Of a stretch of DNA of 64,000 bases, positions 15,501 through 64,000 are shown in pieces. Below the pieces are notes generated by a model. It saw only the letters and a program-made list of their open reading frames with translations. It was not told where the DNA came from and made no database searches. The stretch comes from Pseudovirgaria hyperparasitica (lineage: Eukaryota), in the NCBI GenBank assembly GCA_010093815.1, contig ML996589.1; one strand, given 5' to 3'. Each line of letters opens with the position of its first letter. Positions within the stretch are counted from its first letter, which is position 1. The position numbers and the translations under genes are program-made.

Positions 15501-15731
15501 GCCAAATACCTATATATAGTAGACATTCCCGAAGAAGTTACGGAGGAGGATATACTTAATATTATTAAGATACTCCCAAATGATAAAGCACCCGGACCAG
15601 ATAGAATTCTAAATTAATGCCTAAAAAGCACTATAAAAGCGACCCTACCACTTATTACTCGTATATTCTAAGCATGCGTCACGTAGGGGTACCACCCCTA
15701 GAGCTTCTAAGTCGCCTATACTATTATACTT
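12544..15731 (+). mobile_element. Tad-like LINE, subfamily A copy A1 (5' UTR, ORF1, endonuclease, start of RT), RIP-inactivated, interrupted by LINE B1
   Basis: After RIP reversal ORF1 has CCHC knuckles (QCFNCQGYGH...C, KCGWCRGDH...C). ORF2 has AP-endonuclease motifs (QxN, IQEP, GDFNLHH, LDLTF, SDH) and KAPGPDGI. Colinear with the other copies. Confidence 0.92.
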
Positions 15732-23591: not shown

Positions 23592-23636
23592 CCGCTAGAA
23601 TTAATACTAATTATAGAGGATCCCTATTATTTAATA

Positions 23637-26600
23637 TAATAATAATAATATTAGTAAACTAGGTAGAGTACCACTCTATAGGCGCATGCCTCCTCTAGTC
23701 TAAGCTACTATATAAGAAGAAACCTACGAATAGGAAAAACTCCCTTATATCCATGACTACGCTCTATCTATCCTCTCGTTCTTTATATATATATAGCCCT
23801 AGAGGCTACTCATAGGCCTATAGCCTATATTATAATAGTTTACCCTTAGGTAGCACGTGTAGATACGGAGATTATTAGTTAAGGGCTGCCCTTAACTAAT
23901 AATCGCGGTTCTCCTAGGGTTCTTCCGACGTATACTAGGGTTCTTCTAGTATATATCGGGCTTCTTCCGGTATATATACGCGGGTCTACTAGAACTAGAG
24001 GAGAGGAAGATGTACGAGCATCTATTAGGCGACGTCCTTAGGGTACTTATTAAGCTATTATATAATATCGGAGATTCTCGTTATACGGACGAGGGCTTAT
24101 CTTAGGGTATAGAGGCTAGAGTACGTCGCGAGGTAGTGGCGTATTATACCTCTCCGGCCGTAGTCCTCGCACTAGGGAGATATATCTAGGACGCCTCTCT
24201 AGTAGAGGTAATATAGAAGATCTATAGCGCCTGTTTAGGCTTAGAGGAGTATAGATGCTTAGGCCTTCGTAAGCCCTTTATACATCTATTTACTCGGTTC
24301 CTTCTAAGGCCCTTAGATCTATTCTAGATACCTATCCTATTAGGAGGCCCACTAGGCTTTAAGTACCTCCCTCTATTTATCCTAGATCCACGACTATATA
24401 ACGCGGCTAAGCTCCTTAGGGCTCTATTAGCTCAGGACGGTATCTAGATTATTTCGAACCTCCTACGCGGTCTAGCTTAAGTCCGCCTCTATATAGTATT
24501 TATATTATACTCGAGTTTATCCTATAGTAGGGAGGGCCTAGTAATACGCGTGGATATGTGTGCGTAGTACGGCGAAGGTATATACCCTATCTCCTCTACG
24601 TTCTTATACTTATTATTTAGTAAAGTATATAAGTCTCTATATCTAGTAGAAGTCCTATATACTTATTACGTTTATCTCGCGTCGGAGGAGCGTTATGTTA
24701 GTAGCTTTATATACGCCGGAGATAAGGCGGAGTATACGGTTTTATATAGACTTAAGCTTTACCCGCTAAGCTTATATAAGGGCTGTGTACTAGCACTCGT
24801 GTCCGTATATAAAGGCTAGGCGTGCTAGGGAGACGTATAGCTATCTCGCCTTATCCCGGGCTATTCCCTACGTGGATGCCGTAATCTAGTATATAGCGGT
24901 TTCTACCTAGAGGGCTCTAGAGACGGCGTGTGCCACCTATAGTCCCTATTTTAGCTTATTATCGATTATAACGCCGAGTGCTCGTATACTCTATACTAGT
25001 GGTTCTATAAAGGCGTCGATTTAGGGGCGACGTGCCCCCTCCCTAGTAGCCTATCCTCTATAGTAGTTAATAAAGTATATAAGCTAGTATTTTTTAGGTG
25101 CGAATTTTACTCCGTGGCGCTTTACCCACTAGACGCATTTCTTATAGTCTCATTCGAGTCGTATACATGTTCTACTAGTACTACTATCGACCGTAAGGAG
25201 GTATATATCGTCCGCGTATCCGACTACCTCTATATATTCTATTCTCTAAAGGAGGTCTACTATAAAGAAGAGGAAGAGGATCGGGGAGATAGTGCTCCCT
25301 TACGGGATGCCATATACCGTCTCCTTATATTCGCTTCGGTATCCAGGGATATATATTTAAGTAGTCCTTTACGCGAGAAAGGACTATATAAATCATATAA
25401 TCTACTTAGGTATTCGCCTTATCCGGAGGTTATAGATAAGTCTTATATAGTTTACCTTATTAAACGCCCCTACTATATCTAGGGAGAGTAGCATAACGAC
25501 TCGTCCTTATTTCTATATAGTCTAGATAACCTCGAGGATATATTAAATAGCTATAATTAGGGAGCTTCCTACCTTCGCCTTCTAGTTTACTAGGAGAAGG
25601 CCGTGTACCTATACTACTATACTTATCTTCTTAGTAATCGTAGCTTCTAGTACCTTACTAAGGTAGAAGAGGAGGGTAATCGGCCTCCATCCCTTTAGCG
25701 TGTTTAGGCTCTTCCCTAGTTTTAGGAGTATAACCGTGTATATAGTTCGGAAGCTCTATAGGTGGTATCCTATATAGGCGCACGCTCGGAATATATAGCC
25801 TATAATTAGTAAGGTCGCCTATATGGTCCTCTTAAGGTATTAATTCGGAATTCTATCTAGCCCGGGCGCTTTATCATTCGGGAGTGTCTTAATAGCGCCG
25901 AGTATATTATTATCCGTGATTTCTCTAGGGATACTCACGGCTTCTAGGTATTCCGTGCCGTTAATATCTAATAGGTCTATAGGTTCTAGGAGAGGGAACA
26001 TAACCTCTCGTAGGATCTCTATTTTCTCGAGGCTCGTGGAGTACGTCTTTTCTTAATATATAAGAGGGGGTATAAGTAGTATAGGTGTCGGGGAGGCGGT
26101 GCTTTTGGCCCATTTTACCATATGCCATAGTCTAGTAGTATTACGTGTATATCTATCCGTGACTATATACTACTATTTATATCGCTCGTTACGGAGGACC
26201 TTATCTCGTTATCTTCTCGCCTCTCTCTATTTATCCTACGCTTTAGATATCTAGTTATAGTATACACGTATATATAATCTCTAGACTTCTCGCCTATGCT
26301 CTCGTACTTAAGGTATACTTTTCGGGTCTAGGGGTCTATATATTCGGTACGGCACGTGTTTATCTCTTACTCTCTAGTACGCCTATAGGAGTGTATTCAC
26401 GGCCTGGTTAATGGCCGGGCCATTAGATACGTCGACTATAGACGGGTCTAGGATCGTCGATTCCAGGTCCTTTAGGTACTTTTCCTAGTTAGTATCCTTC
26501 TATAGCTATCGCCCTCGTTAGTCTTAAGGGGTGGATACATCTATTACGGTCTCCATATATTTATAGTCGGAGTCTATCTATATAAGGCTTGGGCGGTAGT

Positions 26601-28928: not shown

Positions 28929-29912
28929 AAATAGTTTTCCTATCTAACTATACTACTATCTAATAACTCTATTCTTATATTCGAATTACTCTCTATATAG
29001 TACTATAGTTAAGATAGTCTAACTAGAACTAAGAAGGTTAACACGATCTACTATAGGGATAAGTAATACTATATTAAATAATAGGGATCCTCTATAATTA
29101 GTATTAATCCTAGCTATTTCTAACTAAGAAGTAGAGATATTAGACTAAATCACGGAGCTTTTAGACGAAGAAATAGTAGATATACTAAGTAACTTCTAAT
29201 AATATAAAGCTAGATAATAAGTTATAGCGGAGCCACGTAAGGTATTATAATAAACTATTACTAAACTTTAAGAATACGTTATAAATTAGACTTAAGAGAT
29301 TTAAACTCTTAAAGAATAGATAGAACGCGCGAAACTCCTTATAAAGAGATAAGAACTTAAGGAGTCTCTTAAAGAACTACGCCGAATAATAGTAGATAGA
29401 TAACTTTCTATACTAATTTAGGCGGAATTAGTTTACCTACTATTAGAGTTATAATAATCTACTATACTCCTAGCCGCTTCATTACCGATTTACCCTACTC
29501 CTTCTCTAGATATACTAAAATCTAAAGACCTAACTATATTTATAGAGAAGAACTAAAAGGAGTAGAAAGACTAGAAGAGAGACTACGAAAAGTACTTCCT
29601 TAATAATCCTCTACTCTTTTCTACTAAAGTATAATATATTTTATTTAGAGAATAATACCTAGACTTATAATTCTATAATTAATAGAATATATAGAAGGAA
29701 GTATAGCTACTATCTGTAATAACCTAGAAATATTTAGCTATATTTATACTAAACACTCTTAGAACGGATAGAGAATATAAAAGAAAGGTACTATCTAAGT
29801 TAAGAAGCGTACTATAATAACCGAACTAGATATCTACTTAACTACTATAATACCTCTAAAACCTATAGAATAATATCTCTACGCTATAGAAAAATATTTA
29901 TATATTCTAGTT
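28929..29912 (+). mobile_element. gag: Gypsy 5' leader and gag fragment (probably family G2), RIP-degraded
   Basis: After RIP reversal one frame gives a coiled-coil segment, then approximately PKSKDPTVFTGKNQKEWKDWKRDCEKYF...TWEHLATFMLNTLG...LRSAxQQPNQT, a typical fungal Ty3/Gypsy capsid pattern. Confidence 0.65.
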
Positions 29913-32900
29913 GGCTACGAAGCCTCACGAACCGCGTCCACGTCGTCGTAGCTAGGCAATGCCTCTATAGAGGTAGTAAGAGGTTTAGAGCGGCGTTAAT
30001 GGCAACCTAGTCGTCGCTAGATAGATGGTTAAAGAGTTTTCGCGGAGCGTCTACCTTACTAAACCACGCTAATATAACCTAGCTAGGGAAGTATATACTT
30101 TCATTCTATCCCTAATTAACGCGTTAAGAGAAGTTCACGAGAATAAAGGGATAAGAAAACCACCTAACGCGCTACTACTATGTCGAAAGCAGGCCTAAAT
30201 CTATCTTACTAACTAGGTAGACGAAGCGGAGGTCCTAGTAGCGCGATAGGATACCTCGAGGCTTAAACGGCTCTAGGAACGTAAGGAACACGTCGAGGGT
30301 AACTAAGAAACTACTACTAGAAGAACTTATTAAAGCTAACTCTCCTATAGTATTAAACTACGTTTATTAAGCCGCCTAGTACGACTACTAGTAGCACGAC
30401 TCTATTAAGACCTTTCGCTCGATACAAGATACCACTTTACTACTAATAGATAGAGTAGCTCCCGCGTACGAGAGATGTTATAGTCTACCATAGAAGGTAG
30501 GATACTAGAGTATATAGATAATAGTATATAGATATAGGTAGAAGGCAGCTATAGGGACCCTTTAAGAGTAGTAGAAATAAGTCAGGTTAGTAGAAAGAGA
30601 ATACCTAAGTCGCCTAGGCGTATATACGTAAGGGATTTAGAGGATACTCTCCTATAAGACACGGTCGGCCTATTATAGAGAGATCCTTATAGGTAACGCG
30701 AAACCGAAAAGTAGTAATACTTAAAGGCGGGGCGTGGTATATAGTAGTAACTACTAGCTCTAAGGACCTTACCCCTTTAATAGGCTCTAACCCTTAGTAT
30801 ATCTAGAAGTAGATAGGATTACGTCCTAGCTAGAGAGACTACTATATAGCCCGAGAGAACGGATGCGCGTATCGATTTATAAAGAGATAGAACGTGTCGC
30901 CTATAAGGCACGTACGCTAGTATTATAAGTTTAAGGAGTAAACCTCGTAGTTACCTAGCTAGGAGAGGCTTCGGTTACCTCTTCTAGTAGAGCCGGAGAT
31001 ATAAGCCTAGAGGGGATAAGATAAGGCGAAAATAGGAGTAGGGCCTAATGGTATAGAGCACGTCGAACCTATAGGAGTTATCTAACTCCGAACTAGAGGC
31101 CCTCGATATAGCCGGAGCGTTTAACAAGGTAAACCACATAAGACTTATTTATAACCTCCGGATAAGACGAATACTAGAATGGATTATACGCTTTATATAG
31201 TTATTCCTTATAGGAAGAATAACTTAGATATATATCTCTAGATACTAGAGCGAATATAAAGAGACGGTATACGGTATTCTATAAGGGAGCACTATCTCTC
31301 TAATTCTATTTCTCTTCTTTATAGTAGACCTTCTTTAAGGAATAAAGTATATAGAGATAGTCGGATACGCCGATAATATATACCTCCTAGCTATTAATAA
31401 TAATACTAACCGAACGTATAGACGACTAGAATAGAACTATAAGAGGTGCCTCTAGTAGATAAAATACTATAGAGTAAAGTTCGCCCCGGAGAAATACCAG
31501 CTTATACACTTTATTAACCGTTAAGGGAAATAGGTAACTAGGGAAGGCGAACGACGCCCCCGAATCGACGCATTTAATAAACTACTAGTATAAAGCATGC
31601 GCGCGCTCGGAGTCATACTAGATAGCAAGCTTAAATAGGGACCATAAGTAGTATACACCGTCTCTAGAGCCCTCTAGGTAGAAGCTACTATATAACGGAT
31701 TATAGCCTCTATATAGAGAACCGCCCGGGATAAGGCACGCTAGCTATATATATCTATGGCACGACCCGCCTTTATATACGGACACGAGTACTAGTATACG
31801 GCCCTTATATAGACTAGGCGAATAAAGCTCGAATCTATATAGAACCGTATACTCCGTCTTATATTAGGCGTATATAAAGCTACTAATACGGTGCTACTAT
31901 GACACGAGATAGACGTTATAAGTATATATAACTTCTACTAGATATAGAGAGTAGTATACTTTACTAAATAATAAGTATAGGAACGTATAGGAAACGTAGA
32001 ATATACTTTCGCCGCGCTACGTGTACGAATTAGTATATATTACCGCGCACTTCTATATATAGGCTAGAATCGAATACGGTATAGGTGCTTAATAGAAGCT
32101 AACTCTAGCTAAGTAGTATAAGAAGTCCGAGATAACCCGGACGCTCTCCTAGACTAGTAGAGCCTTTAAGAACTCGTAAAAAATATATAGTTATAGACTT
32201 AAGATAAGTAGAAAGAGGCACTCCGTACCTACTAGACCTTCTAGTAGGATAGATACCTAGAGTAGATTCGAGGGCTATAGAAGGAACCGAGTAAATAGAT
32301 ATATAAAGGGCTAACGAAAGCCTAAGTATCTATACTTATCTAAGCCCGAACGGGCGCTATAGAACTTCTATACTATATCTATAAGAGAGGCGTTCCTAAT
32401 ACCTCCCTATAGTATAAGGCGTATAGCTAGAGAGGTATAATACGCTACTATCTAGCTATATACCCTAACCTCTATATATAACGGTAATAGCTTATCTACG
32501 TTACGAAGACTTTAGATATTATATAATAGCTTAATAAGTACCCTAAGAATATCTCCCGATAGATACTTATATATCTACTACTCCTCTAGTACTAGTAGAC
32601 CCGGAAATATATACCGGAAGAGACCCGGCATACGCCGGTAGTAACCTAATATATACCGGAAGAACCCCGGGAGAACCCCGATTATTAGTCGAGGGCAGCC
32701 CTTAACTAATAACCTCCGTATCTACACGTGCTATCTAAGGGCGAAATAACGGTAATATAGGCTATAGGCTAATAGGCGTACCCTATAGCTATATACTTAA
32801 GACGAAACAGAGGTTTAACGAGATGTAGTTATAGATATAAGGAAGTTTTTCCCTATAGGGTTTCTTCTTACATAGTGGCTTAGACTAGAGAAGGCATAGG

Positions 32901-32951
32901 CCTATAGAGTACTACTCTACCTAGTTATATAATATTATTATTATTATTATT
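29913..32951 (+). mobile_element. Chimeric retroelement copy 1: 1188-bp unknown module (29913..31100) fused to ~1.85 kb of LINE A 3' end (from RT LDMAGAF to tail)
   Basis: The module is colinear with the reverse complement of 52618..53805. From 31101 the sequence matches LINE A ORF2 and 3' UTR and ends in (TTA)n. Confidence 0.88.
32682..32712. repeat. 31-bp palindrome TTATTAGT(C/T)(G/A)AGGG-nnn-CCCT(T)(G/A)ACTAATAA; least-mutated example of 13 complete copies in the window
   Basis: Copies start at 12778, 15971, 23324, 23872, 28661, 32682, 35988, 40798, 42711, 47343, 49873, 52492 and 56232, with a partial copy at 60633. Confidence 0.95.
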
Positions 32952-33065
32952 ATAGAATTACTTAACGTGATTTACGTAGTTTATCTTAATAATATACTAA
33001 TTTACTCTAATAGTATATAGAATTATAAAGAATATGTGAAATCGGTACTAAATTATCTAAGATAG
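32952..33065 (+). mobile_element. pol: Gypsy G2 RT fragment (YLDD region)
   Basis: Reverse complement of ~59283..59396. Reads GLLDVICVVYLDDILIYS...HVKSVL after RIP reversal. Confidence 0.8.
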
Positions 33066-42000: not shown

Positions 42001-42475
42001 AGTATAAACCTAGCTAATAGAATATTAAGAAGACCTAACTATAAAGAAGGCGCCTAGGATTATAGTAGCTATAGGGTCCTAGAGTAGCTATAGGCCTAAC
42101 TCTTAAGGACGAGGTTAGATAATAAGTTATCCGATAATTAGCGAGATGCTAACGCCGATACTAGTAATCGAATTTATAAGACTAAAGCTAGTAACTAAAG
42201 ACGCGGTACCGAAGTCCCTAGTAAGCTATTTATCGGCGCTATTAGGGAGGGCGATAGTACCCGGCGTGTATATTAAGTAGACCTCGCCTAGTTAATCGTG
42301 GATCTATAAAAGATAGACCTAATAGTTTTAAAGTTATGTAAAATATAGTAAGATAGATTATTATAGACCGAAGTAGACTATAAGTAGACCTTCGTAGACG
42401 GCTTACTCTACTATAATAGAAAGTACTATATACCAACGGGCAACGCACGATTTACTATAGTTAGCCGATAAAGCG
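33066..42475 (+). mobile_element. Ty3/Gypsy family G1: probable 5' LTR (~33066..33305), gag (33347..34729), pol (PR, RT, RNase H), interrupted by LINE C and cut off at LINE A3
   Basis: Gag starts MAPTTR... and has two CCHC knuckles at ~34570-34710. Pol has protease LDSGS, RT GPIYPLS...[27 protein letters not shown] and YLDD (~41170), and RNase H ETDASG, all after RIP reversal. Confidence 0.88.
35753..41063 (-). mobile_element. Tad-like LINE subfamily C, full length, inserted in G1 RT with a 14-bp TSD
   Basis: TSD ATACTTTAAGTATA at 35739..35752 and 41064..41077. Tail, both UTRs and both ORFs are present. It has A-type UTRs but diverged ORFs. Confidence 0.93.
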
Positions 42476-45400
42476 AAAAACTTCTTACACCCTAACGGAC
42501 CAAATTAGTTAATTCGGGGTAAAATAGCGATTTATATATATTAAACGATAGAGTACACCGAGTATAACAACCTCCGACACATGTACGTACGTATAGTATA
42601 TAATACACGATAATACCGATATATAGAGATACTATATATATACGCTCGAAGACTCTTTAATAATATAAGTATAGACTATATCTAATAAACGCCGACACGC
42701 TAACCCCCTTTTATTAGTTAAGGGCTACCCTTAACTAATAACCATGGCGGCCTTAGGCATCGTAATACCCCGGTATACGCCGGATATGCCCCTACTAGTA
42801 CGGTAGAAACGGCTATATAGCGATATTAATATAGATAGCTAGACACCTATCTAAAATATAGGAACTAACTAAGGGTGCGAAGTACTATAGATAATCTAGA
42901 CCGAGGGGACCCTAAGAGGGGAGACCCTCCTAGATAAAATTAAATACTAGGTAACACGTGTAGAGAGGGACGCCGAGAAGGGAAAGAAGACCCTCCTTTA
43001 TATATTCTAGGACCTTATCCGGAATCTAAGAGGAATTACGGAGAAAGAAAGGAAGTCGCTACGAGAGAAACCTAGTAGTAGACTCGACCGAATAGAAGCT
43101 AGCCTACGGAGAATCTAGGAAGAGCTATCCTAAGGTAAGCGCCCTAATACGTAGGCTTAGATTATAGTAATACCCGGAGCTACCGCACTAAGGACTACTA
43201 GAACTATAGATAGAGTATATAGTATACGTGTCGTAATCTAGAATAAGGATACGCTAGCGTAGGTCTAACGGGCATCCCTAAAGGAAATTATAAATAAGAT
43301 TAATAAATAGAAAGAAATATAGTCGAGCGTCGTGGCTACTAAAGTTACGCTAGGTGGGGTAGTACTTACTACTATAACGAATACTATATAGTAAAACATC
43401 TTACGAGATCTAAACGTGATAGATAGTATCTTCCCCGGCGCGTCTATTAGGGTAGCTATATACCCGATTATAGTATATATAGTACCCGTATAGAGATAGG
43501 CTATCGGAGCGGAGGATATTACGTGTATAGAATAATCTAATACGCGAAAATACCTAGGGATTAAGATTATAAAAGCGTAGTAGAAGAATCTATAGGCGAT
43601 TAAGACAACGGCGAAAAAATACTCTACTATAATTATAGAGCTCCGAGACCCCGCCCTTATATAATATATTATATAGAAGGGATTTCTAATAGAAGGAGAG
43701 CTCCTTATAGCCGAGCTATGGGATAGAGCATGGGTAATAATATAGTACTTTAACTATTAAGGGTATAGATATACTATATAAAGGTGCTTATAGAAGACCA
43801 AGTGCGGATAGTACCATGGGGACCACGCTATCTAGAAGTGCCCTTATAAACCGCGAGGAGACGGACTAAGAAACAGGGATATAGTATAGTATTTAAACTA
43901 CGACGGGAAATACCCGTCGTGGTCGTTAACGTGTATAAAATATAAATAGGTTATAGAATATATTTATACGATAAAAGCAAGAGGCGCGAGATAGTTATAG
44001 AATATAATACCTACTACGAGCCCTTCCTTTATAATACCCCTAACCTCCCCTCCGGAAGGTAGTTAGGCGGGATAGTAGACTATCCCAAAGACGATAGGAC
44101 GACTAAAAGGTATAGTTAAAGCCGCTGCCGCGCGAGGATAGTCGCGCCTCTAAGGAATAAGTATATAGGTATATATACTTCCTAGTACCTAATAAGGGAC
44201 TAGAATATACTCCGAATTATATAGATAAATATATAATATAAAAGAGAGAACTAGGCGACGCTCCTTAAAGAGACCGGGGCTATAATACTCGCTATCTAGG
44301 AACTCTATAAATACTACTAGATAAGTAAACCAACCACACACCCCGGATACTATACTATACACCCTCTAGGACTAGAAAGACGAGTCCTCTTCTATATTTA
44401 TAGGTTAATACCACTCTTATTATAGTTATATACCGAGCGCGATAACCTTAGGATAATACTANNNNNNNNNNNNNNNNNNNNNNNNNNNNNNNNNNNNNNN
44501 NNNNNNNNNNNNNNNNNNNNNNNNNNNNNNNNNNNNNNNNNNNNNNNNNNNNNNNNNNNNNNNNNNNNNNNNNNNNNNNNNACGAAGACGGGTCTACGCT
44601 TAATCTTACCTTCGCCATAGAGTATATTAGTTACCGGATCTAATACTACCGCCTAGGCTAGGTATAGACGGATTCCGACTATAAATATATAGAAACTATA
44701 ATAAACGTATATACCCCGAATGAATAACGGGGACGATAGATATAGAAGGATACTAACTAGGAAAAGTACCTAAAGGACCTAGAATCGGCGATCCTAGATC
44801 CCTCTATAGTCAATATATCTAACGACCTAGCTATAGACCAGGCCGTATAGACACTCCTATAAACATACTAGAATATAAGAAATAAACACGTACTATACCG
44901 AATATACCGGCCCCCGGAAGTAAAGGGGATTCCTCGAGTATAGGAAAGTAGATAAGACGCCCGAAGGCTATATATATATATATACCGTACGAGAATACCC
45001 GAGTCGTAGGAAGAATAGAAGAAAGCGATATAATAATATGATAAAGTCCTCTATAACGAAAGACGTAAATAGTAGCGTATAATTACTAGTTAATAGATAT
45101 AATATATAATAGGGCTATAGTATATAGTGAAATAGGCTAAGGGCGTAGACACTCCGACACCCCCGCCACTTATACCTCCCCTAATATATTAGGGGAGAAT
45201 ATACTCTACGAGCCTTAAGAAAACTAAGGCCCTATAGGAGGCTATATTCCCTCTCCTAGAACTAGTAGATCTATTAGACGTTCACGGCGCCGAATATCTA
45301 TACGCGGTAGATATCCCCGAAGAAGTTATAGAGGAGGACATACTTAATATTATTAAGATACTCCTAAATGATAAAGCACCCGGACTAGATAGAATTCTAA

Positions 45401-47612
45401 ATCGATGTCTAAAAAGCACTATAAAAGCGACCCTACCGCTTATTACTTATATATTCTAAGTATACGTTACGTAGGGGTACCACCCCTAGAGCTTCCGAGT
45501 CGCCTATACTATTATACTCCCGAAACTAGAAAAGAGCCCTAACTCCCTAAAGGGATAGAGACTAATCGCCCTTCTCTTCTACCTAGGTAAGATACTAGAG
45601 GCTACGGTAGTAAAGAAGATAAGTACCGCGGTATAGGAATATAATCTTCTCCCTCCGAACTAGAAGGTAAAGGTAGATAGCTCTCTAATAATAGCTATCT
45701 AATATATTATTAAAGTCGTCTAGGCCGTATAGAAATAGGGACGGGTAGTATCGCTCCTCTCCCTCGATATGGCCGGAGCGTTTAATAAGGTAAACTATAT
45801 AAGACTTATTCATAACCTCCGGATAAGACGAATACTAGAATGGATTATATACTTTATATAGTTATTCCTTATAGAAAGAATAACTTAGATATATATCCCT
45901 AGGTACTAGAGCGAATATAAAGAGACGGTATACGGCATCCCATAAGGGAGTACTATCTCTCTAATCCTATTCCTCTTCTTTACGGTAGACCTTCTTTAAG
46001 GAATAAAGTATATAGAGGTAGTCGGATACGCTAATAATATATACCTTCTAGCTATTAATAATAATACTAACTGAACGTATAGATAACTAGAATAGAACTA
46101 TAAGAGGTGCCTCTAGTAGGTAAAACGCCATAGAGTAAAGTTCGCCCCGGAGAAATACCAGCTCATGCACTTTATTAATCGTTAAGGGAAATAGGTAACT
46201 AGGGAAGGCGAATAACGCCCCCGAATCGACGTATTTAATAAACCACTAGTATAAAGTATGCGCGCGCTCGGAGTTATACTAGATAGTAAGCTTAAATGGG
46301 GACTATAAGTGGCATACGCCGTCTCTAGGGCCCTCTAGATAGAAGCCGCTATACGATGGATTATAGCCTCTAGATAGGGAACCGCCCGGGATAAGGCACG
46401 CTAGCTATATATATCTATAGTACGACCCGCCTTCACGTACGGACACGAGTACTAGTATATAGCCCTTATATAGACTAGGCGAATAAAGCTCGAATCTATA
46501 TAGAACCGTATACTCCGTCTTATATTAGGCGTATATAAAGCTACTAACACGGTACTACTACAACGCGAGATAGACGTTATAAGTATATATAACTTCTACT
46601 AGATATAGAGGGTGGTATACTTTACTAAATAATAAGTATAGGAACGCATAGGAAACGTAGAATATACTTTCGCCGCGCTATATATATAAATTAGTATATA
46701 TTACCGCGTACTCCTATATATAGGCCGGAATTAAATATGGTATAGGTGCTTAATAGAAGCCGACTCTAGCTAAGTAGTATAAGAAGTCCGAGATAACCCG
46801 GACGCTCTTCTAGACTAGTAGAGCCTTTAAGAACTCGTGAAAAACATATAGTTATAGACTTAAGATAAGTAGAAAGAGGCACTCCGTGCCTACTAGACCT
46901 TCTAGTAGAATAGGTACCTAGAGTAGATTTAAGGGCTATAGAAGGAACTGAGTAAATAGATGTATAAAGGGCTAACGAAAGTCTAAGTATCTATACTTAT
47001 CTAAGCCCGAACGGGCGCTATAGGACTCCTATACTATATCTATAAGAGAGGCGTTCCCGACACCTCCCTATAGTATAAGGCGTGCGGCCGGAGAGGTATA
47101 ATATACTACTATCTAGCTATATACCCTAACCTCTATATATAATAGTAATAGCTTATCCACGTTACGAAGACTTTAGATATTATATAATAGCTTAATAAGT
47201 ACCCTAAGGACGTCTCCTAATAGATACTTATATATCTACTACTCCTCTAGTACTAGTGGACCCGGAAATATATACCGGAAGAGACCCGGTATACGCTAGT
47301 AATAACCCGATATATACCGGAAGAACCCCGGGAGAACCCTAATTATTAGTTAAGGGTAGCCCTTAACTAATAACCTCCGTATCTATACGTGCTACCTAAG
47401 GGTAAAATAACGGTAATATAGGCTATAGGCTAATAGGCGTACCCTATAGCTATATACTTAAGACGAAATAGAGGTTTAACGAGATATAGTTATAGATATA
47501 AGGAAGTTTTTCCCTATAGGGTTTCTTCTTATATAGTGGCTTAGACTAGAGAAGGCATAGGCCTATAGAGTACTACTCTACCTAGTTATATAATATTATT
47601 ATTATTATTATT
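42476..47612 (+). mobile_element. Tad-like LINE subfamily A copy A3, nominally full length, containing gap 44462..44581
   Basis: 5' AAAAACTTCTTACACCC, ORF1, ORF2 with C-terminal CKACGRRG...HH...C zinc finger (RIP reversed), 3' UTR and (TTA)n tail. No RNase H is recognisable, and the flanks do not form a TSD. Confidence 0.9.
44462..44581. other. Assembly gap (N run)
   Basis: Run of N. Confidence 1.
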
Positions 47613-47804
47613 ATAGTTAATACTAGAAGCGTAAAATATATTCCGATTATTAAAGAATTACTTTATAACTACGCCGATTCTTAGGTATTTTAATTCTAAG
47701 AAATATATTTAGGTTAAAACTAACGCGTTAGAATTTATAATTACTAGAATTATTAGTTAACTATATAAAGATATAAAAGATAAGATATAATAGTACCCGG
47801 TCGC
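47613..47804 (+). mobile_element. pol: Gypsy G2 RT/RNase H connection fragment
   Basis: Reverse complement of ~58791..58983 (APILRHFDP...RVETDAS...WHPVA after RIP reversal). It ends at the LTR starting 47805. Confidence 0.8.
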
Positions 47805-49636: not shown

Positions 49637-52600
49637 AAAACTTCTTTTACATCCCTAAGAGGCCAACTTGGTCCATTCGGGGTAATATAGCGAGATACAC
49701 ACCTTAATTAATAGAGTACACCGAGTATACTAACTACTACTACACGCACGTACGTATAGCGTCGAAACCAAGACGTTATTACCGTGTAAAGATATATATA
49801 TACCCTCTTAAAATCCTCACGGAGACAGAGGCACGGACTATACTACTAGAACGCCGATACGCTAACCCCCTTTTATTAGTTAAGGGTAGCCCTTAACTAA
49901 TAAATATGGCGGCCTTAGGCACCGATATACCCCGGTATATACTAGATATACCCCTACCGGTACGATAGAAAAGGCCATATAGCGACATTACCAAGGGTAA
50001 CTATACACCTATCTAAAACGTAGAACATACCTAAAGGCACACGCCGCTATAGATAGACGGAATAAAGGGGACCCCGAGAGGGGAAACCCTCCTAGATTAT
50101 ATTAGCTACTAGGTAGCACGTATAGAGAAGGAAGCTAGAGAGGGCTAGAAGACCCTCCTATATATATTCTAGGATCTTATCCGGAACCTAAAGGGAATTA
50201 CGGAGGAGGAGAAGAAGATATAACTAGGAGGACCGAAGAATAGACTCGACCGAATAGAGGCTAGCCTACATAGAATCTAGGAGGAACTTACTTAAGGTAA
50301 GCGCCCTAGCATATAGGTATAAATAGTAGTAATACTAGAGGCTATACTACGGGCCTCCCGGACCGGCGACGTGGCGTATAGTATACGCGTCGTAATCTAG
50401 GATAAGGACACCCTAGTATAGGTCTAGTAAGTATCCCTAAAGGACATAGTAAGTAAGATTAATAAATAAAAGGGAATATAGTTAAACGTCGTTACTACTA
50501 AACTCACACTAGGAGGAGTAGTACTTACTATGATAACGAATATTACGTAGTAGACCATCTCGCGTAATCCGAACGCGATTAGTAGTATCTTCCTAGGCGC
50601 CTCTATTAGGGCGGCTATATACCCGATATAGATATACTCTATACCCGTAAGCGGATAGGTTATTAGAGAAGAGGATATTACGCGGATAGAATAGTTAAAT
50701 AAGCGAAAATACCTAGGGATTAAGATCGTAAGAGCATGGTAGAAGAATATATAAGGGATTAAAACCAGATCGAAGGTACACTCTACTATAATAGTAGAGC
50801 TTAAGGACCCCGCCCTCGCGTATTAAATTACGTAAGAGGGATTTCTAGTAGAAGGGGAGCTTCTTATAGCGGAACCATAGGATAGAGGATAGGCGATAAT
50901 ATAGTACTTTAACTATTAGGGATACGGGTATACGGCATAGTGGTACTCCTAAAAGACTAGGTATAGATAGTATTAATAAGAATATAGTATCTAGGAGTGC
51001 CCCTACGGGATATAAGGAGAGGGCTAGAGGAATAGGGACACGGCGAAGTACTCTAACTACGACGGTAAGTACCCGTCGTGGTCGGCTACGTGCGCGAAAC
51101 GTAAATAGGTTACCGAATATATCTACTTAATCCGGATAAAGGGAGTAAGGTAGCTATAAACGATGCGACCTACTACCGTTCCTCTCTTTACTATAATACT
51201 ACTACTATAGACTACCTCCTTACGAGGAAGCGGTTAGGAATGGTAAACCATCCCGAGAAAGCTAATAATAGAACGGCCCTAAGGAATTACTAAGGCCGCC
51301 GCCGTACGAGGATAGTCGCGTCTTAGAGAAACGAATATATAGGTCTATATATTCTCTAGCACCTAATGAGAGACCAAGATATACTCCTAATTATATAGAT
51401 AAACGTATAGTATAAACGTAAGAACTAGGCGATACTCCTCGAGGAGACCGGAGCTATAATACTCGCTATATAGGAGCTATATAAATACTACCAGACGAAT
51501 AAACCAATAACACACCTAGGATATTATATAATACACCCCCTAGGACCGGAGAGGAGAGTCCTCTTCCATGTCTATAAGTCTATCCTACTCTTATTATAGT
51601 TATATACTAAACGGGATAACCTCCGGATAATACTATACCTCTAGACGAATATCGGACCCCTCCATATATATAATATATATAATTAGAACCGATTGCTTTA
51701 GGCGGATAATATGCTTAAGGGCACTACTAAGCTAGGATAACACATCCTCCTAGGAGACTTTAACCTCTATTATAGCTAGTAGGGTAGACTAACCGTCACC
51801 CGCGAAGAGCTTCGAGCTAGAGAACTACGCATCTAATACTACGGCTTTCTATACCTTCTTATACTAGTAGAATAGATTACCTAGCGAAAACATAAATAAG
51901 ATAAGGGCGGATCTACACTCGACCTTACCCTAGCTACTAGATACATTTATAATAGGACTTAATACTACCGCCTAAGCCTTATATAGATAGACTCTAACTA
52001 CGAATATATAGAGACCGTAATAGACGTATCTACCCCTTAAGACTAACGAGGGCGATAGCTATAGAAGGATACTAACTAGGAAAAGTACCTAAAGGACCTA
52101 GAATTAACGATCCTAGACCCGTCTATAGTCGACGTATCTAATGGCCCGGCTATCGACCAGGCTATGAATACACTTCTATAGGTGTACTAGGGAGTAAGAG
52201 ATAAACACGTGCCGTACCGAATATATAGACCCCTAGACCCGAAAAGTATAATAATAATAATAATAATAATATTATATAACTAGGTAGAGTAGTACTCTAT
52301 AGGCCTATGCCTCCTCTAGTCTAAGCTACTATATAAGAAGAAACCCTATAGGGAAAAACTTCCTTATATCTATAACTATATCTCGTTAAATCTCTATTTC
52401 GTCTTAAGTATATAGCTATAGGGTACGCCTATTAGTCTATAGCCTATATTACTATTATTTTACCCTTAGGTAGCACGTGTAGGTGCGGAGGTTATTAGTT
52501 AAGGGCTGCCCTTAACTAATAATCGGGGTTCTCCCGGGGTTCTTCCGGTATATGTCGGGTTGCTACCGGCGTATACCGGGTCTCTTCCGGCATATATTTC

Positions 52601-55600
52601 GGGGTCCACTGGTACTAGCCTCTAGTTCGGAGTTAGATAACTTCTACAGGTTCGACGTGCCCTATACCATCAGGCCCTACTCCTGTTTTCGCCTTATCTC
52701 ATCCCCTCTAGGCTTATACCTCTAGCTCTACTAGGAGAGATAACCGAAGCCTCTCCTAGCTAGGTAACTACGAGGTTTACTCCTTAAACTTATGATACTA
52801 GCGTACGTGCCTTATAGGCGACACGTTCTATCTCTTTATAAATTAACACGCGCATCCGTTCTCTCGGGCTATATAGTAGTCTCTCCGGCCAGGACGTAAT
52901 CCTATCTACTTCTAGATATACTAAGGGTTAGAGCCTATTAAAGGGGTGAGGTCCTTAGAGCTAGTAGTTACTACTATATACCACACCCCGCCTTTAAGCA
53001 TTACTACTTTTTAGTTTCGTGTTACCTATAAGGATCTCTCTATAATAGGCCGACTATGTCTTATAGGAGAGTATCCTCTAAATCCCTTACGTATATACGC
53101 CTAGGCGACTTAGGCATTCTCTTTCTACTAACCCGACTTATTTCTACTACTCTTAAAGGGTCTCTATAGCTGCCTTCTACCTATATCTATATACTATTAT
53201 CTATATACTCTAGTATCCCACCTCCTACGGTAGACTATAATATCTCTCGTGCGCGGGAGCTACTCTATCTATTAGTAGTAAAGTAGTATCTCGTATCGAG
53301 CGAAAGGTCTTAATAGAGTCGTACTACTAGTAGTTATACTAGGCGGCTTAATAAACGTAGTTTAACACTATAGGAGAGTTAGCTTTAATAAGTTCTTCTA
53401 GTAGTAGTTTCTTAGTTGCCCTCGACGTGTTCCTTACGTTCCTAGAGCCGTTTAAGCCTCAAGGTATCCTATCGCGCTACTAGGACCTCCGCTTCCTCTA
53501 CCTAGTTAGTAAGATAGATTTAGGCCTACTTTCGATATAGTAGTAGCGCGTTAGATGGTTTTCTTATCTCTTTATCCTCGTGAACTTCTCTTAACGCGTT
53601 AATTAGGGATAGGATAGAAGTATATACTTCCCTAGCTAGGTTATATTAGCGTGGTTTAGTAAGGTAGACGCTCCGCGAAAACTCTTTAACCATCTATCTA
53701 GCGACGACTAGGTCGCCATTAACGCCGCTCCGAATCTCTTACTACCTCTATAGAGGCATTGCCTAGCTACGACGACGTGGACGCGGTTCGTAAGGCTTCG
53801 TAGCCGACCCGAAAAGTATACCTTAAGTGCGAGAGTATAGGTAAGAAGTCCGGAGATTATACACACGCGTATACTATAACCGTATACCTAAAGCGTAGGA
53901 TGAATGGAGAGAGGCGAGAAGATAATAAGATAAGGTCCTCCGCAACGAGCGACGTAAATAGTAGTATATAGTTACGGATAGACATACACGTAATACTACT
54001 AGACTATAGTATATAGTAAAATGGGCCAAAAGTACCGCCTCCCCGATATCTATACTACTTATACCCCCCCTTATATATTAAGAAAAGACGTACTCTACGA
54101 GCCTCGAGAAAATAGAGATCCTATAAGAGGTTATATTCCCTCTCCTAGAACCCGTAGATCTATTAGATATCGACGGCACGGAATACCTAGAAGCCGTAAG
54201 TATTCCTAGGGAAATCACGGACGATAATATACTTAGCGCTATTAAGATACTCCCGAATGATAAAGCGCCTAGACTAGACGGAATTCCGAATTAATACCTT
54301 AAGAGGACCATATAGGCGACCTTACCGATTATAGGCTATATATTCCGAGCGTACGCCCGTATAGGATACTACCTATAGAGCTTCTAAACTATATATATAG
54401 TTATACTCCTAAAACTAGGGAAGAGCCTAAACACGCCGAAGGGATGGAGGCCGATCGCCCTCCTCCTCTACCTTAGTAAGGTACTAGAAGCTACGATTAC
54501 TAAGAAGATAAGTATAGTAGTATAGGTACACGGCCTTCTCCTAGTAAACCAGAAGGCGAAGGTAGAAAGCTCCCTAATCATAGCCATTTAACATATCCTT
54601 AAGGTTATCTAGACTATATAGAAATAAGGACGAGTCATCACGCTACTCTCCCTAGACATAGTAGGGGCGTTTAATAAGGTAAACTATATAAGACTTATCC
54701 ATAACCTCCGGATAAGGCGAATACCTAAGTAGATTATACGATTTATATAGTCCTTCCTCGCGTAAAGGACTACTTAAATATATATCCCTAGATACCGAAG
54801 CGAATATAAGGAGACGGTATACGGTATCCCGTAAGGGAGTACTATCTCCCCGATCCTCTTTCTCTTCTTTATAGTAGACCTCCTTTAGAGAATAGAATAT
54901 ATAGAGATAGTCGGATACGCGGACGATATATACCTCCTCGCGGTCGATAGTAGTACTAGTAGAACATGTACACGACTCGAACGAGACTATAAGAAATGCG
55001 TCTAGTAGGTAAAGCGCCACGGAGTAAAATTCGCACCTAAAAAATACTAGCTTATATACTTTATTAACCGCCGTAGAGGATGGGCTACTAGGGAGGGGGT
55101 ATGTCGCCCCTAAATCGACGCCTTTATAGAACCACTAGCATAGAGTATACGAGCACTCGGCGTTATACTTAATAATAAGCTAAAATAGGGACCATAGGTA
55201 GCACACGCCGTCTCTAGAGCCCTCTAGGTAGAAACCGCTATACGCTAGATTACGGTATCTACGTGGGGAATAGCCTAGGATAAGGCGAGATAGCTATACG
55301 TCTCCCTAGTACGCCTAGCCTTTATATACGGACACGAGTACTAGTATACGGCCCTTATATAAGCTCGGCGGGTAAAGCTTAAGTCTATATAAAACTATAT
55401 ACTCCGCCTTATCTCCGGTGTATATAAAGCTACTAATATAATGCTCCTCCGACGTGAGATAAACGTAATAAGTATATAGGACTTCTACTAGATATAGAGA
55501 CTTATATACTTTACTAAATAATAAGTATAAGAACGTAGAGGAGATAGGGTATATACCTTCGCCGTACTACGCACACGTATCTGCGCGCATTACTAGGCCC

Positions 55601-56507
55601 TCTCTACTATAGAATAAACTCGAGTATAATATAAATGCTATATAGAGGCGGACTCGAGCTAGACTATATAGGAGGTTTAAAATAACCCGGATGCTATCCT
55701 AAGCTAATAGAGCCCTAAGGAGCTTAGCCGCGTTATACGGTTATAGATCTAGGATAAATAGAGGGAGGTACTTAAAGCCTAGTAGGCCTCCTAATAGAAT
55801 AGGTATCTAGAATAGATCCGAGGGCCTTAGAAGGAACCGAGTAAATAGATGTATAAAGGGCTAACGAAGGCCTAAGCATCTATACTCCTCTAAGCCCGAA
55901 TAGGCGCTATAGGTCTCCTATATTATCTCTACTAGAGAGGCGTCCTAGATATATCTCCCTAGTGCGAGGACTACGGCCGGAGAGGTATAATACGCCACTA
56001 CCTCGCGACGTACTCTAGCCTCTATACCCTAAGATAAGCCCTCGTCCGTATAACGAGGACCTCCGATATCACGTAATAGCTTAATAAGTACTCTAAGGAC
56101 GTCGCCCGATGGATGCTTATACACCTTCCTCTCCCCTAGTTCTAGTAGACCCGCGTATATATACTAGAAGAAGCCTAATATATGCTAGAAGAACCCCGGT
56201 ATACGTCGGAAGAACCCTAGGAGAACCGCGATTATTAGTTAAGGGTAGCCCTTAACTAATAATCTCCGTACCTATATGTGCTACCTAAGGGTAAACCATT
56301 ATAATATAGGCTATAGGCCTATAGGTAGCCCCTAGGGCTATATATATATAAAGAACGAGAGGATAGATAGAGCGTAGTTATGGATATAAGGGAGTTTTTC
56401 CTATTTATAGGTTTCTTCTTATATAGTAGCTTAGACTAGAGAAGGCATGCGCCTATAGAGTGGTACTCTACCTAGTTTACTAATATTATTATTATTATTA
56501 TTATTAT
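49637..56507 (+). mobile_element. Tad-like LINE subfamily B copy B3, full length, 13-bp TSD, carrying the nested chimeric element copy 2
   Basis: TSD TATAGATCTTTAT at 49624..49636 and 56508..56520. ORF1 ATG at 49906, ORF1/ORF2 overlap at ~51364-51369, (TTA)n tail. Confidence 0.93.
52251..53805 (-). mobile_element. Chimeric retroelement copy 2: 1188-bp module (53805..52618) fused to 367 bp of LINE A/C-type 3' end; 15-bp TSD
   Basis: TSD GACCCGAAAAGTATA at 52236..52250 and 53806..53820. The host B3 ORF2 resumes seamlessly after the TSD. Confidence 0.93.
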
Positions 56508-59500: not shown

Positions 59501-60487
59501 TCTACTTATCTCCGCGACGAATTCAAAGCCGGTAATATATATCTTATAAATCTAGCTTCGTAAAGTACTTTACCTTTATTAATTAGTCTAAAGATTTACT
59601 AACTAGTAGTAATAGATAACGATTCTTCTTAGTTACTATATTTAGTGCCTGATAGTCGATATATAGATATAAACTTCCGTCTTTCTTCTTTATAAAGAGA
59701 ATAGATACGCCGGCTAATAACGTACTATAATATATCTAGTCTCTTCCGAGGTATTCTTTAATATATTTATAAAGAACTTCGAGTTCTAGTCTCGAAAGTA
59801 GGTAAAGTAGACTATAAGGGACGTCTACTCCCTCCTTAAGCTTAATCTTTAGCTTATACGGTCTATAGTTAGAGAGAAGTAACGTATCTTCTACCGAAAA
59901 CACATCCGTATACTACGAATATATATTAGATAGCGTGTCTTTGCTCTAATTATTACTATTATTCTCGTCTTTATTAATGATTAATAAGAATATAAGATAG
60001 ATTAGCGATAATCGGGTCCGTATGGTAAGGTTCCATGCCTCCTTACTAATAGTTATAACTTACTAGTATAATTTACTACGGTGTTATTAGAACGTTAATA
60101 TCTCCTTCTAAAAATTAAGGATAGGGTTTAGACGTCTAAGCTAAGGCATGCCTAGAATCATATTCTATTAGCTAATATTAGCTACGATAAATTTATTAGA
60201 TATGTACTATTTTATTATCTTCGAGTTATAAACTTCGTAATTCGTTATAGCTTTACCTAAAGTTCTAACTTTATATCTATTAACTATAATAATAATAATA
60301 ATAATATTATATAACTAAGTAGAGTAGTACTCTATAGGCCTATACCTCCTCTAGTCTAAGCTACTATATAAGAAGAAACCCTATAGGGAAAAACTTCCTT
60401 ATATCTATAACTACATCTTATTAAATCTCTATTTCGTCTTAAGTATATAGCTATAGGGTACGCCTATTAGCCTATAGCCTATATTAC

Positions 60488-60632
60488 NNNNNNNNNNNNN
60501 NNNNNNNNNNNNNNNNNNNNNNNNNNNNNNNNNNNNNNNNNNNNNNNNNNNNNNNNNNNNNNNNNNNNNNNNNNNNNNNNNNNNNNNNNNNNNNNNNNNN
60601 NNNNNNNNNNNNNNNNNNNNNNNNNNNNNNNN
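60488..60632. other. Assembly gap (N run)
   Basis: Run of N. Confidence 1.
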
Positions 60633-62217
60633 CCCTTAACTAATAATCGGGGTTCTCCCGGGGTTCTTCCGGTATATATCGGGTTACTACCGGCGTATAC
60701 CGGGTCTCTTCCGGTATATATTTCCGGGTCTACTAGTACTAGAGGAGTAGTAGATATATAAGTATCTATTAGGAGACGTCCTTAGAGTACTTATTAAGCT
60801 ATTATACGATATCTAAAGTCTTCGTAACGTAGATAAGCTATTACCGTTATATATAGAGGTTAGGGTATATAGCTAGATAGTAGCGTATTATACCTCTCCG
60901 GCCGTACGCCTTATACTATAGAGAGGTATTAGGAACGCCTCTCTTATAGATATAGTATAGAAGTCCTATAGCGCCCGTTTAGGCTTATATAAGTATAGAT
61001 ACTTAGGCTTTCGTTAGCCCTTTATATATCTATTTACTTAGTTCCTTCTATAGCCCTCGAATCTACTCTAGGTACCTATTCTACTAGAAGGTCTAGTAGG
61101 CACGGAGTGCCTCTTTCTACTTATCTTAAGTCTACGACCGTATATTTTTTATAAGTTCTTAAAGGCTCTACCGGTCTAGGAGAGCGTCTGGGTTATCTCG
61201 GACTTCTTATACTACTTAGCTAGAGTCGGCTTCTATTAAGCACCTATACCGTATTTAATTCTAGCCTATATATAGAAGTGCGTGGTAATATATACTAATT
61301 TATGCACGTAGCGCGGCGAAAGTATATTCTATGTTTTCTATATATTCCTATACTTATTATTTAGTAAAGTATACTACTCTCTATATCTAGTAGAAGTTAT
61401 ATATACTTATAACGTCTATCTCGTGTCGTAGTAGCACCGTGTTAGTAGCTTTATATACGCCTAATATAAGACGGAGTATACGGTTCTATATAGATTCGCG
61501 CTTTATTTACCTAGTCTATATAAGGGCTATATACTAGCACTCGTGTCCGTACGTAAAGGCGGGTCGTACTATAGATATATATAGCTGGCGTACCTTATCC
61601 CGGGCGGTTCCCTATATAGAGACTATAATCCGTCGTATAGTGGCTTCTATCTAGAGGGCCCTAGAGACGGCGTATACTACTTATAGTCTCTATTTAAGCT
61701 TACTATCTAGTATAACTCCGAGCGCGCGCATGCTTTATACTAGTAGTTCGTTAAATGCGTCGATTCGGGGGCGTTATTCGCCTTCCCTAGTTACCTATTT
61801 CCCTTAACGGTTAATGAAGTGCATGAGCTAGTATTTCTCTAGGGCGAACTTTACTCCGTGGCATTTTACCTACTAGAGGCACCTCTTATAGTTCTATTCT
61901 AGTCGTCTATACGTTCGGTTAGTATTATTATTAATAGCTAGGAGGTATATATTATTAGCGTATCCGACTACCTCTATATACTTTATTTCTTAAAGAAGGT
62001 CTACTATAAAGAAGAGGAATAGGATCGGAGAGATAGTGCTCCCTTATGGGATACCGTATACCGTCTCTTTATATTCGCTCTAGTATCTAGAGATATATAT
62101 CTAAGTTATTCTTTCTATAAGAAATAACTATATAAAGCGTATAATCTATTCTAGTATTCGTCTTATCCGGAGGTTATAAATAAGTCTTATATAGTTTACC
62201 TTATTAAACGCTCCGGC

Positions 62218-62927
62218 NNNNNNNNNNNNNNNNNNNNNNNNNNNNNNNNNNNNNNNNNNNNNNNNNNNNNNNNNNNNNNNNNNNNNNNNNNNNNNNNNNN
62301 NNNNNNNNNNNNNNNNNNNNNNNNNNNNNNNNNNNNNNNNNNNNNNNNNNNNNNNNNNNNNNNNNNNNNNNNNNNNNNNNNNNNNNNNNNNNNNNNNNNN
62401 NNNNNNNNNNNNNNNNNNNNNNNNNNNNNNNNNNNNNNNNNNNNNNNNNNNNNNNNNNNNNNNNNNNNNNNNNNNNNNNNNNNNNNNNNNNNNNNNNNNN
62501 NNNNNNNNNNNNNNNNNNNNNNNNNNNNNNNNNNNNNNNNNNNNNNNNNNNNNNNNNNNNNNNNNNNNNNNNNNNNNNNNNNNNNNNNNNNNNNNNNNNN
62601 NNNNNNNNNNNNNNNNNNNNNNNNNNNNNNNNNNNNNNNNNNNNNNNNNNNNNNNNNNNNNNNNNNNNNNNNNNNNNNNNNNNNNNNNNNNNNNNNNNNN
62701 NNNNNNNNNNNNNNNNNNNNNNNNNNNNNNNNNNNNNNNNNNNNNNNNNNNNNNNNNNNNNNNNNNNNNNNNNNNNNNNNNNNNNNNNNNNNNNNNNNNN
62801 NNNNNNNNNNNNNNNNNNNNNNNNNNNNNNNNNNNNNNNNNNNNNNNNNNNNNNNNNNNNNNNNNNNNNNNNNNNNNNNNNNNNNNNNNNNNNNNNNNNN
62901 NNNNNNNNNNNNNNNNNNNNNNNNNNN
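62218..62927. other. Assembly gap (N run)
   Basis: Run of N. Confidence 1.
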
Positions 62928-64000
62928 TTATTAGTTATATATATTATATATATATAGGGGGCCTATATCTATTTATAGGTATAGTATTATCCTAAGGTTA
63001 TCGCGCTCGGTATATAACTATAATAAGAGTGGTATTAACCTATAAATATAGAAGAGGACTCGTCTTTCTAGTCCTAGAGGGTGTATAGTATAGTATCCGG
63101 GGTGTGTGGTTGGTTTACTCGTCTAGTAGTATTTATAGGGTTTCTAGATAGCGAGTATTATAGCCCCGGTCTCTTCGAGGAGCGTCACCTAGTTCTCTCT
63201 TTTATATTATACGTTTACCTATATAATTTAGAGTATATTCTAGTCCCTTATTAGGTACTAGGGAGTATATATACCTATATACTTATTTCTTAGAGGCGCG
63301 ACTATCCTCACGCGGTAGCGGCTTTAACTATACCTTTTAGTCGTCCTATTATCTTCGGGATAGTCTACTATCCTACCTAACTACCTTCCGGAGGGGAGGT
63401 TAGAGGTATTATAAAGGAAGAGCCCGTAGTAGGTGTTATATTCTATAACTATCTCGCGTCTCTCGCTTTTATTATATAAATGTATTCTATAACCTATTTA
63501 CGTTTTATATATGTTAACGACTATAACGGGTATTTTCTATCGTAGTTTAAATACTATACTATGTCCCTGTTTCTTAGTCCGTCTCCTCGCGGTTTATAAG
63601 GGTACTTCTAGATAGCGTGGTCTCTATAGTACTATCCGCACTTAGTCTTCTATGAGCACCTTTATATAGTATATCTATACCCTTAATAGTTAAAGCACTA
63701 TATTATTATCTATGCCCTATTCCATGGCTCGGCCATAAGGAGCTCTCCTTCTACTAGGAATCCCTTCTATATAATATATTATACGAGGGCGGGGTCTCGG
63801 AGCTCTATAATTATAGTAGAGTGTTTTTTCGCTATTATCTTAATCGCCTATGGGTTCTTCTACCACGCTTTTACGATCTTAATCCCTAGGTATTTTCGCG
63901 TGTTAGATTATTCTATACACGTAATATTCTCCGCTCTAATAGTCTATCCCTATATAGATACTACGTGTACTATAATTAGGTATATAGCTACTCTAATAGA

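Follow-up and report, generated by a model that had tools for sequence, protein, structure and literature searches.

The 64,000-nucleotide stretch of contig ML996589.1 of Pseudovirgaria hyperparasitica that was analysed here (NCBI GenBank assembly GCA_010093815.1; hereafter the window) consists of AT-rich, fungal-type DNA that is full of transposons and saturated with C-to-T and G-to-A transitions like those of repeat-induced point mutation (RIP). One long interspersed nuclear element (LINE) is present in roughly nine copies, whole or partial, which fall into three subfamilies differing by ~3.5 % and ~7.5 % transversions. The same sequence, here called the module, occurs twice in this setting, each time joined directly to the 3' part of the LINE (Table 1). 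An initial annotation of the window had read these two loci as a chimeric retroelement, in which a fixed module is joined to variable LINE 3' ends; the chimeric module-LINE elements are confirmed by the present analysis, and the interpretation is supported by the fixed ends of the module, the variable points of entry into the LINE and the insertion of module and LINE end as one unit.

A BLAST search of the window with module copy 1 as the query recovers exactly the two loci that had been reported, copy 2 matching copy 1 over 1188 bp without a gap and with 95.3 % identity (E = 0). The 56 mismatches between the copies comprise 55 transitions and a single transversion, and both copies are strongly RIP-marked, with TpA/ApT indices of 2.34 and 2.26 and (CpA+TpG)/(ApC+GpT) indices of 0.19 and 0.24 for copies 1 and 2, respectively. 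Both begin with GGCTACGAAGCC and end with ...CCGAACTAGAGGC; the 5' end is identical in 2/2 window copies, and in copy 2 it abuts a target-site duplication (TSD). The length of 1188 bp given by the initial annotation stands for both copies, except that the final C is ambiguous: in both, it is equally assignable to the LINE base that precedes the point of entry, and the module is thus 1187 or 1188 nt long.

The alignments also agree with the earlier statement that the module is followed at once by A-type LINE sequence, entered at a different point in each copy. The LINE part of copy 1 is 92.9 % identical to positions 45761-47614 of a full-length A-type LINE of the window, used here as the reference, and differs from another LINE copy (H) by only 2 transversions in 1585 aligned bases; its entry corresponds to position 45762 of the reference, within the reverse transcriptase domain. 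The much shorter LINE part of copy 2 shows 93-95 % identity to A-type LINE 3' ends. The module ends are equal in the two copies while the LINE entries differ by 1485 bp, and neither window copy has a poly(A) stretch or filler between module and LINE.

The claim that copy 2 was inserted as one unit with a clean 15-bp TSD is borne out both by an exact repeat and by an empty site. The repeat, TATACTTTTCGGGTC, abuts the first module base on one side and the end of the tail on the other, and copy 2 lies within an older, D-type LINE, between whose aligned halves 34 query bases are missing, that is, the flanks minus one TSD. In the paralogous LINE copy E, where the target site is uninterrupted, the two flanks of copy 2 overlap by exactly the length of the duplication. 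With direct TSDs at both ends and an empty-site paralogue, copy 2 must have been inserted in its present form. The TSDs of ordinary LINE copies in the window measure 13-15 bp, so the duplication of copy 2 fits the same machinery.

Table 1. Features of the window and module-LINE joints in contigs from public sequencing runs. Joints are given by the position on the reference segment 29700-33300 at which the LINE is entered.
Feature	Position	Strand	Runs	Remarks
Regions of LINE copies	12544-17733, 18923-28921, 35750-47614, 49637-56504, 60278-64000			
Reference full-length A-type LINE	42477..47614	+		5.14 kb; N run 44462-44581 inside
Module copy 1	29913..31100	+		1188 bp; six-frame Pfam null; period-3 signal-to-noise 0.42
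LINE 3' part, copy 1	31101..32953	+		1853 bp; reverse transcriptase domain to (ATT)n tail
Module copy 2	52618..53805	-		1188 bp; non-coding, RIP-mutated; period-3 signal-to-noise 0.31
LINE 3' end, copy 2	52251..52617	-		367 bp (368 with the shared C); hairpin and (ATT)n tail
5' TSD, copy 2	53806..53820	-		TATACTTTTCGGGTC on the element strand; equals 52236-52250
3' TSD, copy 2	52236..52250	-		exact 15-bp repeat adjoining the tail end
Empty target site in LINE copy E	26314..26328	-		flanks of copy 2 overlap by exactly 15 bp
Older D-type LINE, target of copy 2	49637..56504	+		halves 49637-52250 and 53806-56504; own TSD TATAGATCTTTAT
Joint	31238		X1, X2	shorter side 28 letters
Joint	31507		X1, X2	shorter side 28 letters; 11 letters between the parts
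Joint	32368		X2	shorter side 29 letters
Joint	32381		X1	shorter side 44 letters
Joint	32525		X2	shorter side 29 letters
Joint	32581		X3, X4	shorter side 58 letters; second sample, not listed for the first
Joint	32586		X1	shorter side 48 letters; copy 2 itself

Further joints between module and LINE were found in four public sequencing runs from two samples, of which the first (X1 and X2) contains 70 % and 60 % of the window's words and the second (X3 and X4), which carries the same species label, almost none. Contigs from these runs were aligned to positions 29700-33300 at 80 % likeness, with a bar in the alignment tool of 31 letters on the shorter side of a joint; entries into the LINE lying 5' of that of copy 1 could not show as joints on this segment. 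Seven contig joints depart from 31098-31101, the last bases of the module, six of them new and one being that of copy 2 itself. The 11 letters between the parts of one joint are LINE sequence with transitions, and its true entry hence lies at ~31496. Including copy 1, there are eight points of entry, with 1853, 1716, ~1458, 586, 573, 429, 373 and 368 bp of LINE retained, and the 3' breakpoint of the module falls within 2 nt (31098-31101) in 8/8 junctions, four of which have sides below 31 letters. Instead of ragged module ends or a single LINE junction, the joints thus show a fixed module 3' end and variable LINE entry, and the further distinct entries agree with the proposal that the two junctions of the window arose independently: a deletion in copy 1 does not suffice to explain copy 2. 

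In X3 and X4, a T or A of the window is replaced in the contigs by C or G at 265 places, and the reverse holds at only 26, an asymmetry from which it follows that less RIP-mutated copies of module and LINE exist. The copies in the window, all of them heavily RIP-mutated, are presumably dead. Contig depth summed over the module is about one tenth of that over the LINE part, a ratio that is not a copy number. Cover by X3 and X4 is absent outside ~29821-32966, which fits the ends of the element and is not counted as evidence. The same runs contain a joint from 29965 to 30114 with a 53-letter side, which would begin at 29913 if that is the side meant.

The carrier is an ordinary LINE with endonuclease and reverse transcriptase (RT), as indicated by its domain matches. 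When the reference copy is translated with X at stops, Pfam RVT_1 is matched at 45547-46215 with E = 2.1e-11, and a less mutated sister copy (41062-35750, minus strand) matches both Exo_endo_phos_2 (8.8e-13) and RVT_1 (3.1e-16). Together with its (ATT)n tail, TSDs and 5' truncation, these domains give the carrier the features of a LINE of the apurinic/apyrimidinic endonuclease (APE) type. The reference copy begins with AAAACTTCT.ACACCCTAACGG, as do six further 5' ends in the window, and has (ATT)n at its 3' end. Copies of the D/E/G subfamily are 99.9-100 % identical when transitions are ignored, and nearly all of their 25 % divergence is therefore due to RIP. The 3' untranslated region (UTR) of the LINE includes a hairpin with a near-perfect 14-bp stem (TTATTAGT..GGG / CCC..ACTAATAA) some 250 bp upstream of the (ATT)n tail, which is a candidate recognition element for the RT. 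This hairpin is kept in both window chimeras (at 32682-32712 in copy 1 and ~52492-52523 in copy 2) and, judged by their LINE entry coordinates, the remaining chimeras should hold it too. Folding of the LINE 3' UTR, compared with shuffled sequences, gave z = -0.84.

Runs of N at 17978-18922, 44462-44581, 60488-60632 and 62218-62927 (1920 bases in total) all lie within LINE copies and represent either gaps in the assembly or withheld sequence. The first 10,000 positions of the window are GC-richer (0.42-0.54) and gene-like, with open reading frames of 150-295 amino acids that have no recognised relatives; the 295-amino-acid frame at 133-1020 (minus strand) has an identical entry in the Protein Atlas and no related cluster there.

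As in the initial annotation, no protein is recognised in the module, which looks non-coding. It has 25-42 stops per frame and a longest open stretch of 59 codons, and it lacks codon periodicity: the period-3 signal-to-noise ratios of its two copies (Table 1) compare with 1.9-5.3 in six equally sized and equally RIP-mutated windows of the LINE. A Pfam search of the six module frames, with X at stops, gave nothing that was accepted, a match to NNH6 (E = 0.28) being rejected. In an Rfam search (cmscan of positions 29700-33300, E up to 1), no family was matched by the module, where RIP may hide one; sub-threshold matches of the LINE part to CRISPR-DR60 (23.4 bits, gathering threshold 45) and mir-1277 (22.5 bits, gathering threshold 81) were rejected as chance. 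ARAGORN found no tRNA gene in the module. Folding of both module ends in both copies, and of one internal piece, gave z = 0.03 to 1.01, not above shuffles, and RIP may have erased any structure. Bases 9-13 of the module (GCCTC) are complementary to GAGGC at its 3' end (29913-29926 with 31093-31100), and the 3' end of copy 1 can form a 6-bp hairpin (GGAGTT/AACTCC), one pair of which is broken by a transition in copy 2; neither pairing gives a folding signal beyond shuffles, and both may be due to chance. RIP-tolerant pattern scans of metagenomes for the 5' and 3' ends of the module gave 0 matches each.

Several familiar identities were considered for the module and set aside. It starts with GG and ends with GC, unlike the TG...CA of a long terminal repeat (LTR). 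A short interspersed nuclear element (SINE) is not indicated either, since ARAGORN and Rfam find none of the possible RNA polymerase III heads (tRNA, 5S, 7SL) and the tail is variable. Nor is the 5' partner recognised as a small cellular RNA: with Rfam (E up to 1), the module matches neither U6 nor any other known small nuclear or nucleolar RNA. Trans-splicing was rejected as the joining mechanism, because AG precedes the LINE entry in 0/8 junctions.

The closest counterpart in architecture is MINE, the WEIRD-MGL chimera of Magnaporthe grisea/oryzae, which is said to go back to Fudal et al. (2005). In MINE, a WEIRD RNA of 1113 nt (GenBank EF585235-EF585237) is joined to 230-5461 nt of the LINE MGL, with 28 junction sites in 33 elements, TSDs of 10-20 bp, no solo WEIRD copy found and no function known for WEIRD (PMC2104539; Gogvadze et al., 2007). 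The likeness drawn by the initial annotation is apt in this respect. Both systems have a full-length, non-coding 5' part with constant ends and of similar size (1113 nt for WEIRD and 1187-1188 nt for the module), joined directly, in the same orientation and without poly(A), to a variably 5'-truncated resident LINE at many junction sites, of which eight are seen here (four of them solid), with 368-1853 bp of LINE retained, and the 15-bp TSD of copy 2 lies within the range of those of MINE. A pyrimidine precedes the LINE entry in all 18 rows tabulated for MINE (PMC2104539, Table 3) and in 7/8 junctions here, where a proportion of 0.46 would be expected (binomial P = 0.02, post hoc). The systems differ in that MGL is ~6 kb long and the LINE described here 5.1 kb, and in that the present copies are saturated with RIP-type transitions. 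Furthermore, three 20-nt WEIRD/MINE primers (PMC3978060) have no match in the module, even transition-blind: their best sites show 7-11 plain mismatches, or 1-3 transition-blind ones at non-corresponding places, and other parts of the window match the primers equally well. At the level of sequence, this mismatch rules out near-identity to WEIRD and not distant homology. The element is therefore MINE-like in architecture, while identity with MINE proper is not borne out by the three primers or by the junction motif considered below.

Other known composites resemble the element in part. Mammalian U6/L1 and small nuclear RNA/L1 chimeras, as described in PMC6789731 and PMC11838501, also combine a complete RNA having an exact, non-polyadenylated 3' end with a variably 5'-truncated LINE, flanked by TSDs, and either template switching or RNA ligation is given as the mechanism for U6/L1 (PMC6789731). 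They differ in that the 5' partner here is 1.19 kb long and without an Rfam family, and in that the module is apparently the main, if not the sole, partner, as opposed to many cellular RNAs. SINEs with LINE-derived tails, such as Mg-SINE (PMC2104539), are similarly non-autonomous and dependent on recognition of the LINE 3' end; however, they have one fixed LINE-derived tail and an RNA polymerase III head, whereas the LINE part here ranges from 0.37 to 1.85 kb and there is no tRNA-like head. In LINE 5' transduction, foreign sequence likewise stands 5' of the LINE inside one TSD, but it joins the LINE at the first base, while the joints described here are internal (LINE position ~3285 and later).

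The combination of a constant left and a variable right breakpoint inside one TSD is as expected for an RNA with a real 3' end that was joined to a 5'-truncated LINE RNA or complementary DNA, and the lack of poly(A) at the joint implies that the joined module RNA was not polyadenylated. We accordingly favour, with a probability of roughly 0.55, a bipartite family of MINE type, in which a discrete RNA without poly(A) has its exact 3' terminus attached to 5'-truncated LINE RNA and is inserted by the LINE machinery. The module RNA would be a non-coding molecule of ~1.19 kb that begins at a defined base (GGCTACG...) and terminates, again at a defined position and without poly(A), in ...CTAGAGG(C), and its partner would be the resident 5.1-kb LINE with APE-type endonuclease, RT, 3'-UTR hairpin and (ATT)n tail. 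The LINE would nick the target and prime reverse transcription on its own RNA; the RT would then quit the LINE template after 0.37-1.85 kb or more, in most cases just 3' of a pyrimidine, resume at the extreme 3' terminus of the module RNA and copy it to its 5' end, after which the product would integrate with a TSD of ~15 bp. Every distinct junction would on this account represent a separate event. The join would thus occur by template switching during reverse transcription, with the module present as a free RNA; that the LINE RT changes templates in the course of target-primed reverse transcription is also the classical explanation (PMC2104539).

A number of points weigh against this reading. 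In four of the six new joints, the shorter side measures only 28-29 letters, below the 31-letter bar, so that a strict count leaves four solid distinct junctions (copy 1, copy 2, 32381 and 32581). The joint itself varies by 1-2 nt, with the C present, absent or doubled, as read from coordinates and not from the letters of the contigs. No TSD was found for copy 1, even with transitions allowed, in flanks that have no informative paralogue in the window. Neither a LINE-free copy of the module nor a transcript of it was seen, both window copies being fused to the LINE and the sequencing runs listed for the window including none of RNA. The MINE junction motif GCC*A/U occurs in 0/8 junctions, nor is its transition-blind form, purine-pyrimidine-pyrimidine, present upstream. 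In addition, template switching and RNA ligation before reverse transcription give the same product in DNA sequence.

This last point leads to an alternative that, although somewhat unlikely, shares much of its evidence with template switching. The module RNA, ending in a 2',3'-cyclic phosphate or 3'-phosphate, would be joined by a cellular RNA ligase to LINE RNA fragments with a 5'-OH, produced by an endoribonuclease that cuts after pyrimidines, and the chimeric RNA with its LINE 3' end would then be retrotransposed in the ordinary way. Ligation of this kind has been demonstrated for human U6/L1 chimeras with RtcB (PMC6789731), and a fixed module 3' end, a variable LINE 5' end, a TSD and the lack of poly(A) would be expected from it equally. 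The pyrimidine that precedes the entry, here and in MINE, is what cleavage 3' of pyrimidines would leave; yet the bias is weak (P = 0.02, post hoc) and could equally reflect a pause site of the RT. The end chemistry of the module RNA is purely postulated in this scheme, and the enzyme would have to differ from RtcB in an ascomycete. Ascomycetes generally use a Trl1-type tRNA ligase and not RtcB, and Trl1 also joins cyclic-phosphate and 5'-OH ends. The 1-2-nt variability of the joint suits non-templated addition by an RT somewhat better, and on this basis template switching is favoured over prior ligation, if only mildly.

Two further explanations dispense with a discrete module RNA or with repeated joining. 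It is quite improbable that the module is the ordinary 5' part (a long 5' UTR or promoter) of another LINE or transposable element family and that the chimeras are recombinants of two elements, even though mosaic LINEs arising by template switching between LINE RNAs are known (PMC2104539) and the module has neither RNA polymerase III features nor a tRNA head. In fact, the module stops at one base (within 2 nt) whatever follows, a constancy that needs an RNA end at this position and not the interior of a longer transcript. Its lack of a coding signal and its termini also speak against such an origin, as does a purine/pyrimidine-coded BLAST search of the module against the rest of the window, including the 5' regions of the three LINE subfamilies, in which the best match scores 64 bits, inside the range of 58-83 bits given by reversed and shuffled controls (LINE positive control, 1654-2279 bits). 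No sign that the module is the ordinary 5' part of another known transposable element, one of the refutations named by the initial annotation, was thus found within the 64-kb window, to which this search was confined, and a parent element could lie elsewhere in the genome. Very improbable is the spread, as a non-autonomous element, of one ancestral chimera (module plus a long LINE part) whose junction variants are later internal deletions or artefacts of repeat assembly and alignment. The LINE part of copy 2 is indeed a subset of that of copy 1, and several of the extra joints lie on short contigs with sides of 28-29 letters, but deletions would not share one left breakpoint in 8/8 junctions, copy 2 has a TSD at both of its ends as well as an empty-site paralogue, and the joints at 32581 and 32381 are bridged by 58 letters, in two runs of the other sample, and by 44 letters, respectively.

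Beyond the manner of joining, the module may be a dedicated, tail-less parasitic RNA and not a captured housekeeping RNA: a functional counterpart, and possibly a distant relative, of WEIRD that would spread only by the joining of its 3' end to LINE RNA fragments starting after a pyrimidine. This proposal as a whole is unlikely and is put forward as a conjecture. The action of RIP favours a parasitic over a housekeeping module, since any cellular gene that had given rise to many 1.2-kb retrocopies would be exposed to RIP in its turn. If the module is such a parasitic RNA, the pyrimidine rule common to it and MINE would suggest endonucleolytic cleavage followed by ligation of the fungal tRNA-ligase type, and not template jumping by the RT, as the general fungal route.

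A literature search, based on the accessible portions of the sources, returned only the MINE-type elements of Magnaporthe and mammalian LINE-1 chimeras, although further published cases may exist; among the sources so covered, MINE was the only fungal family described with recurrent fusion of a single long non-coding RNA to LINE tails. The present elements constitute a second family, with a different LINE and a module unmatched by the WEIRD primers, and the phenomenon is accordingly not peculiar to one species. They also allow module ends and junction rules to be compared between two systems, with LINE entry after a pyrimidine as a candidate rule in both. Such chimeras are of practical relevance as well: in the rice blast fungus, an avirulence gene was inactivated by a MINE insertion (PMC2104539).

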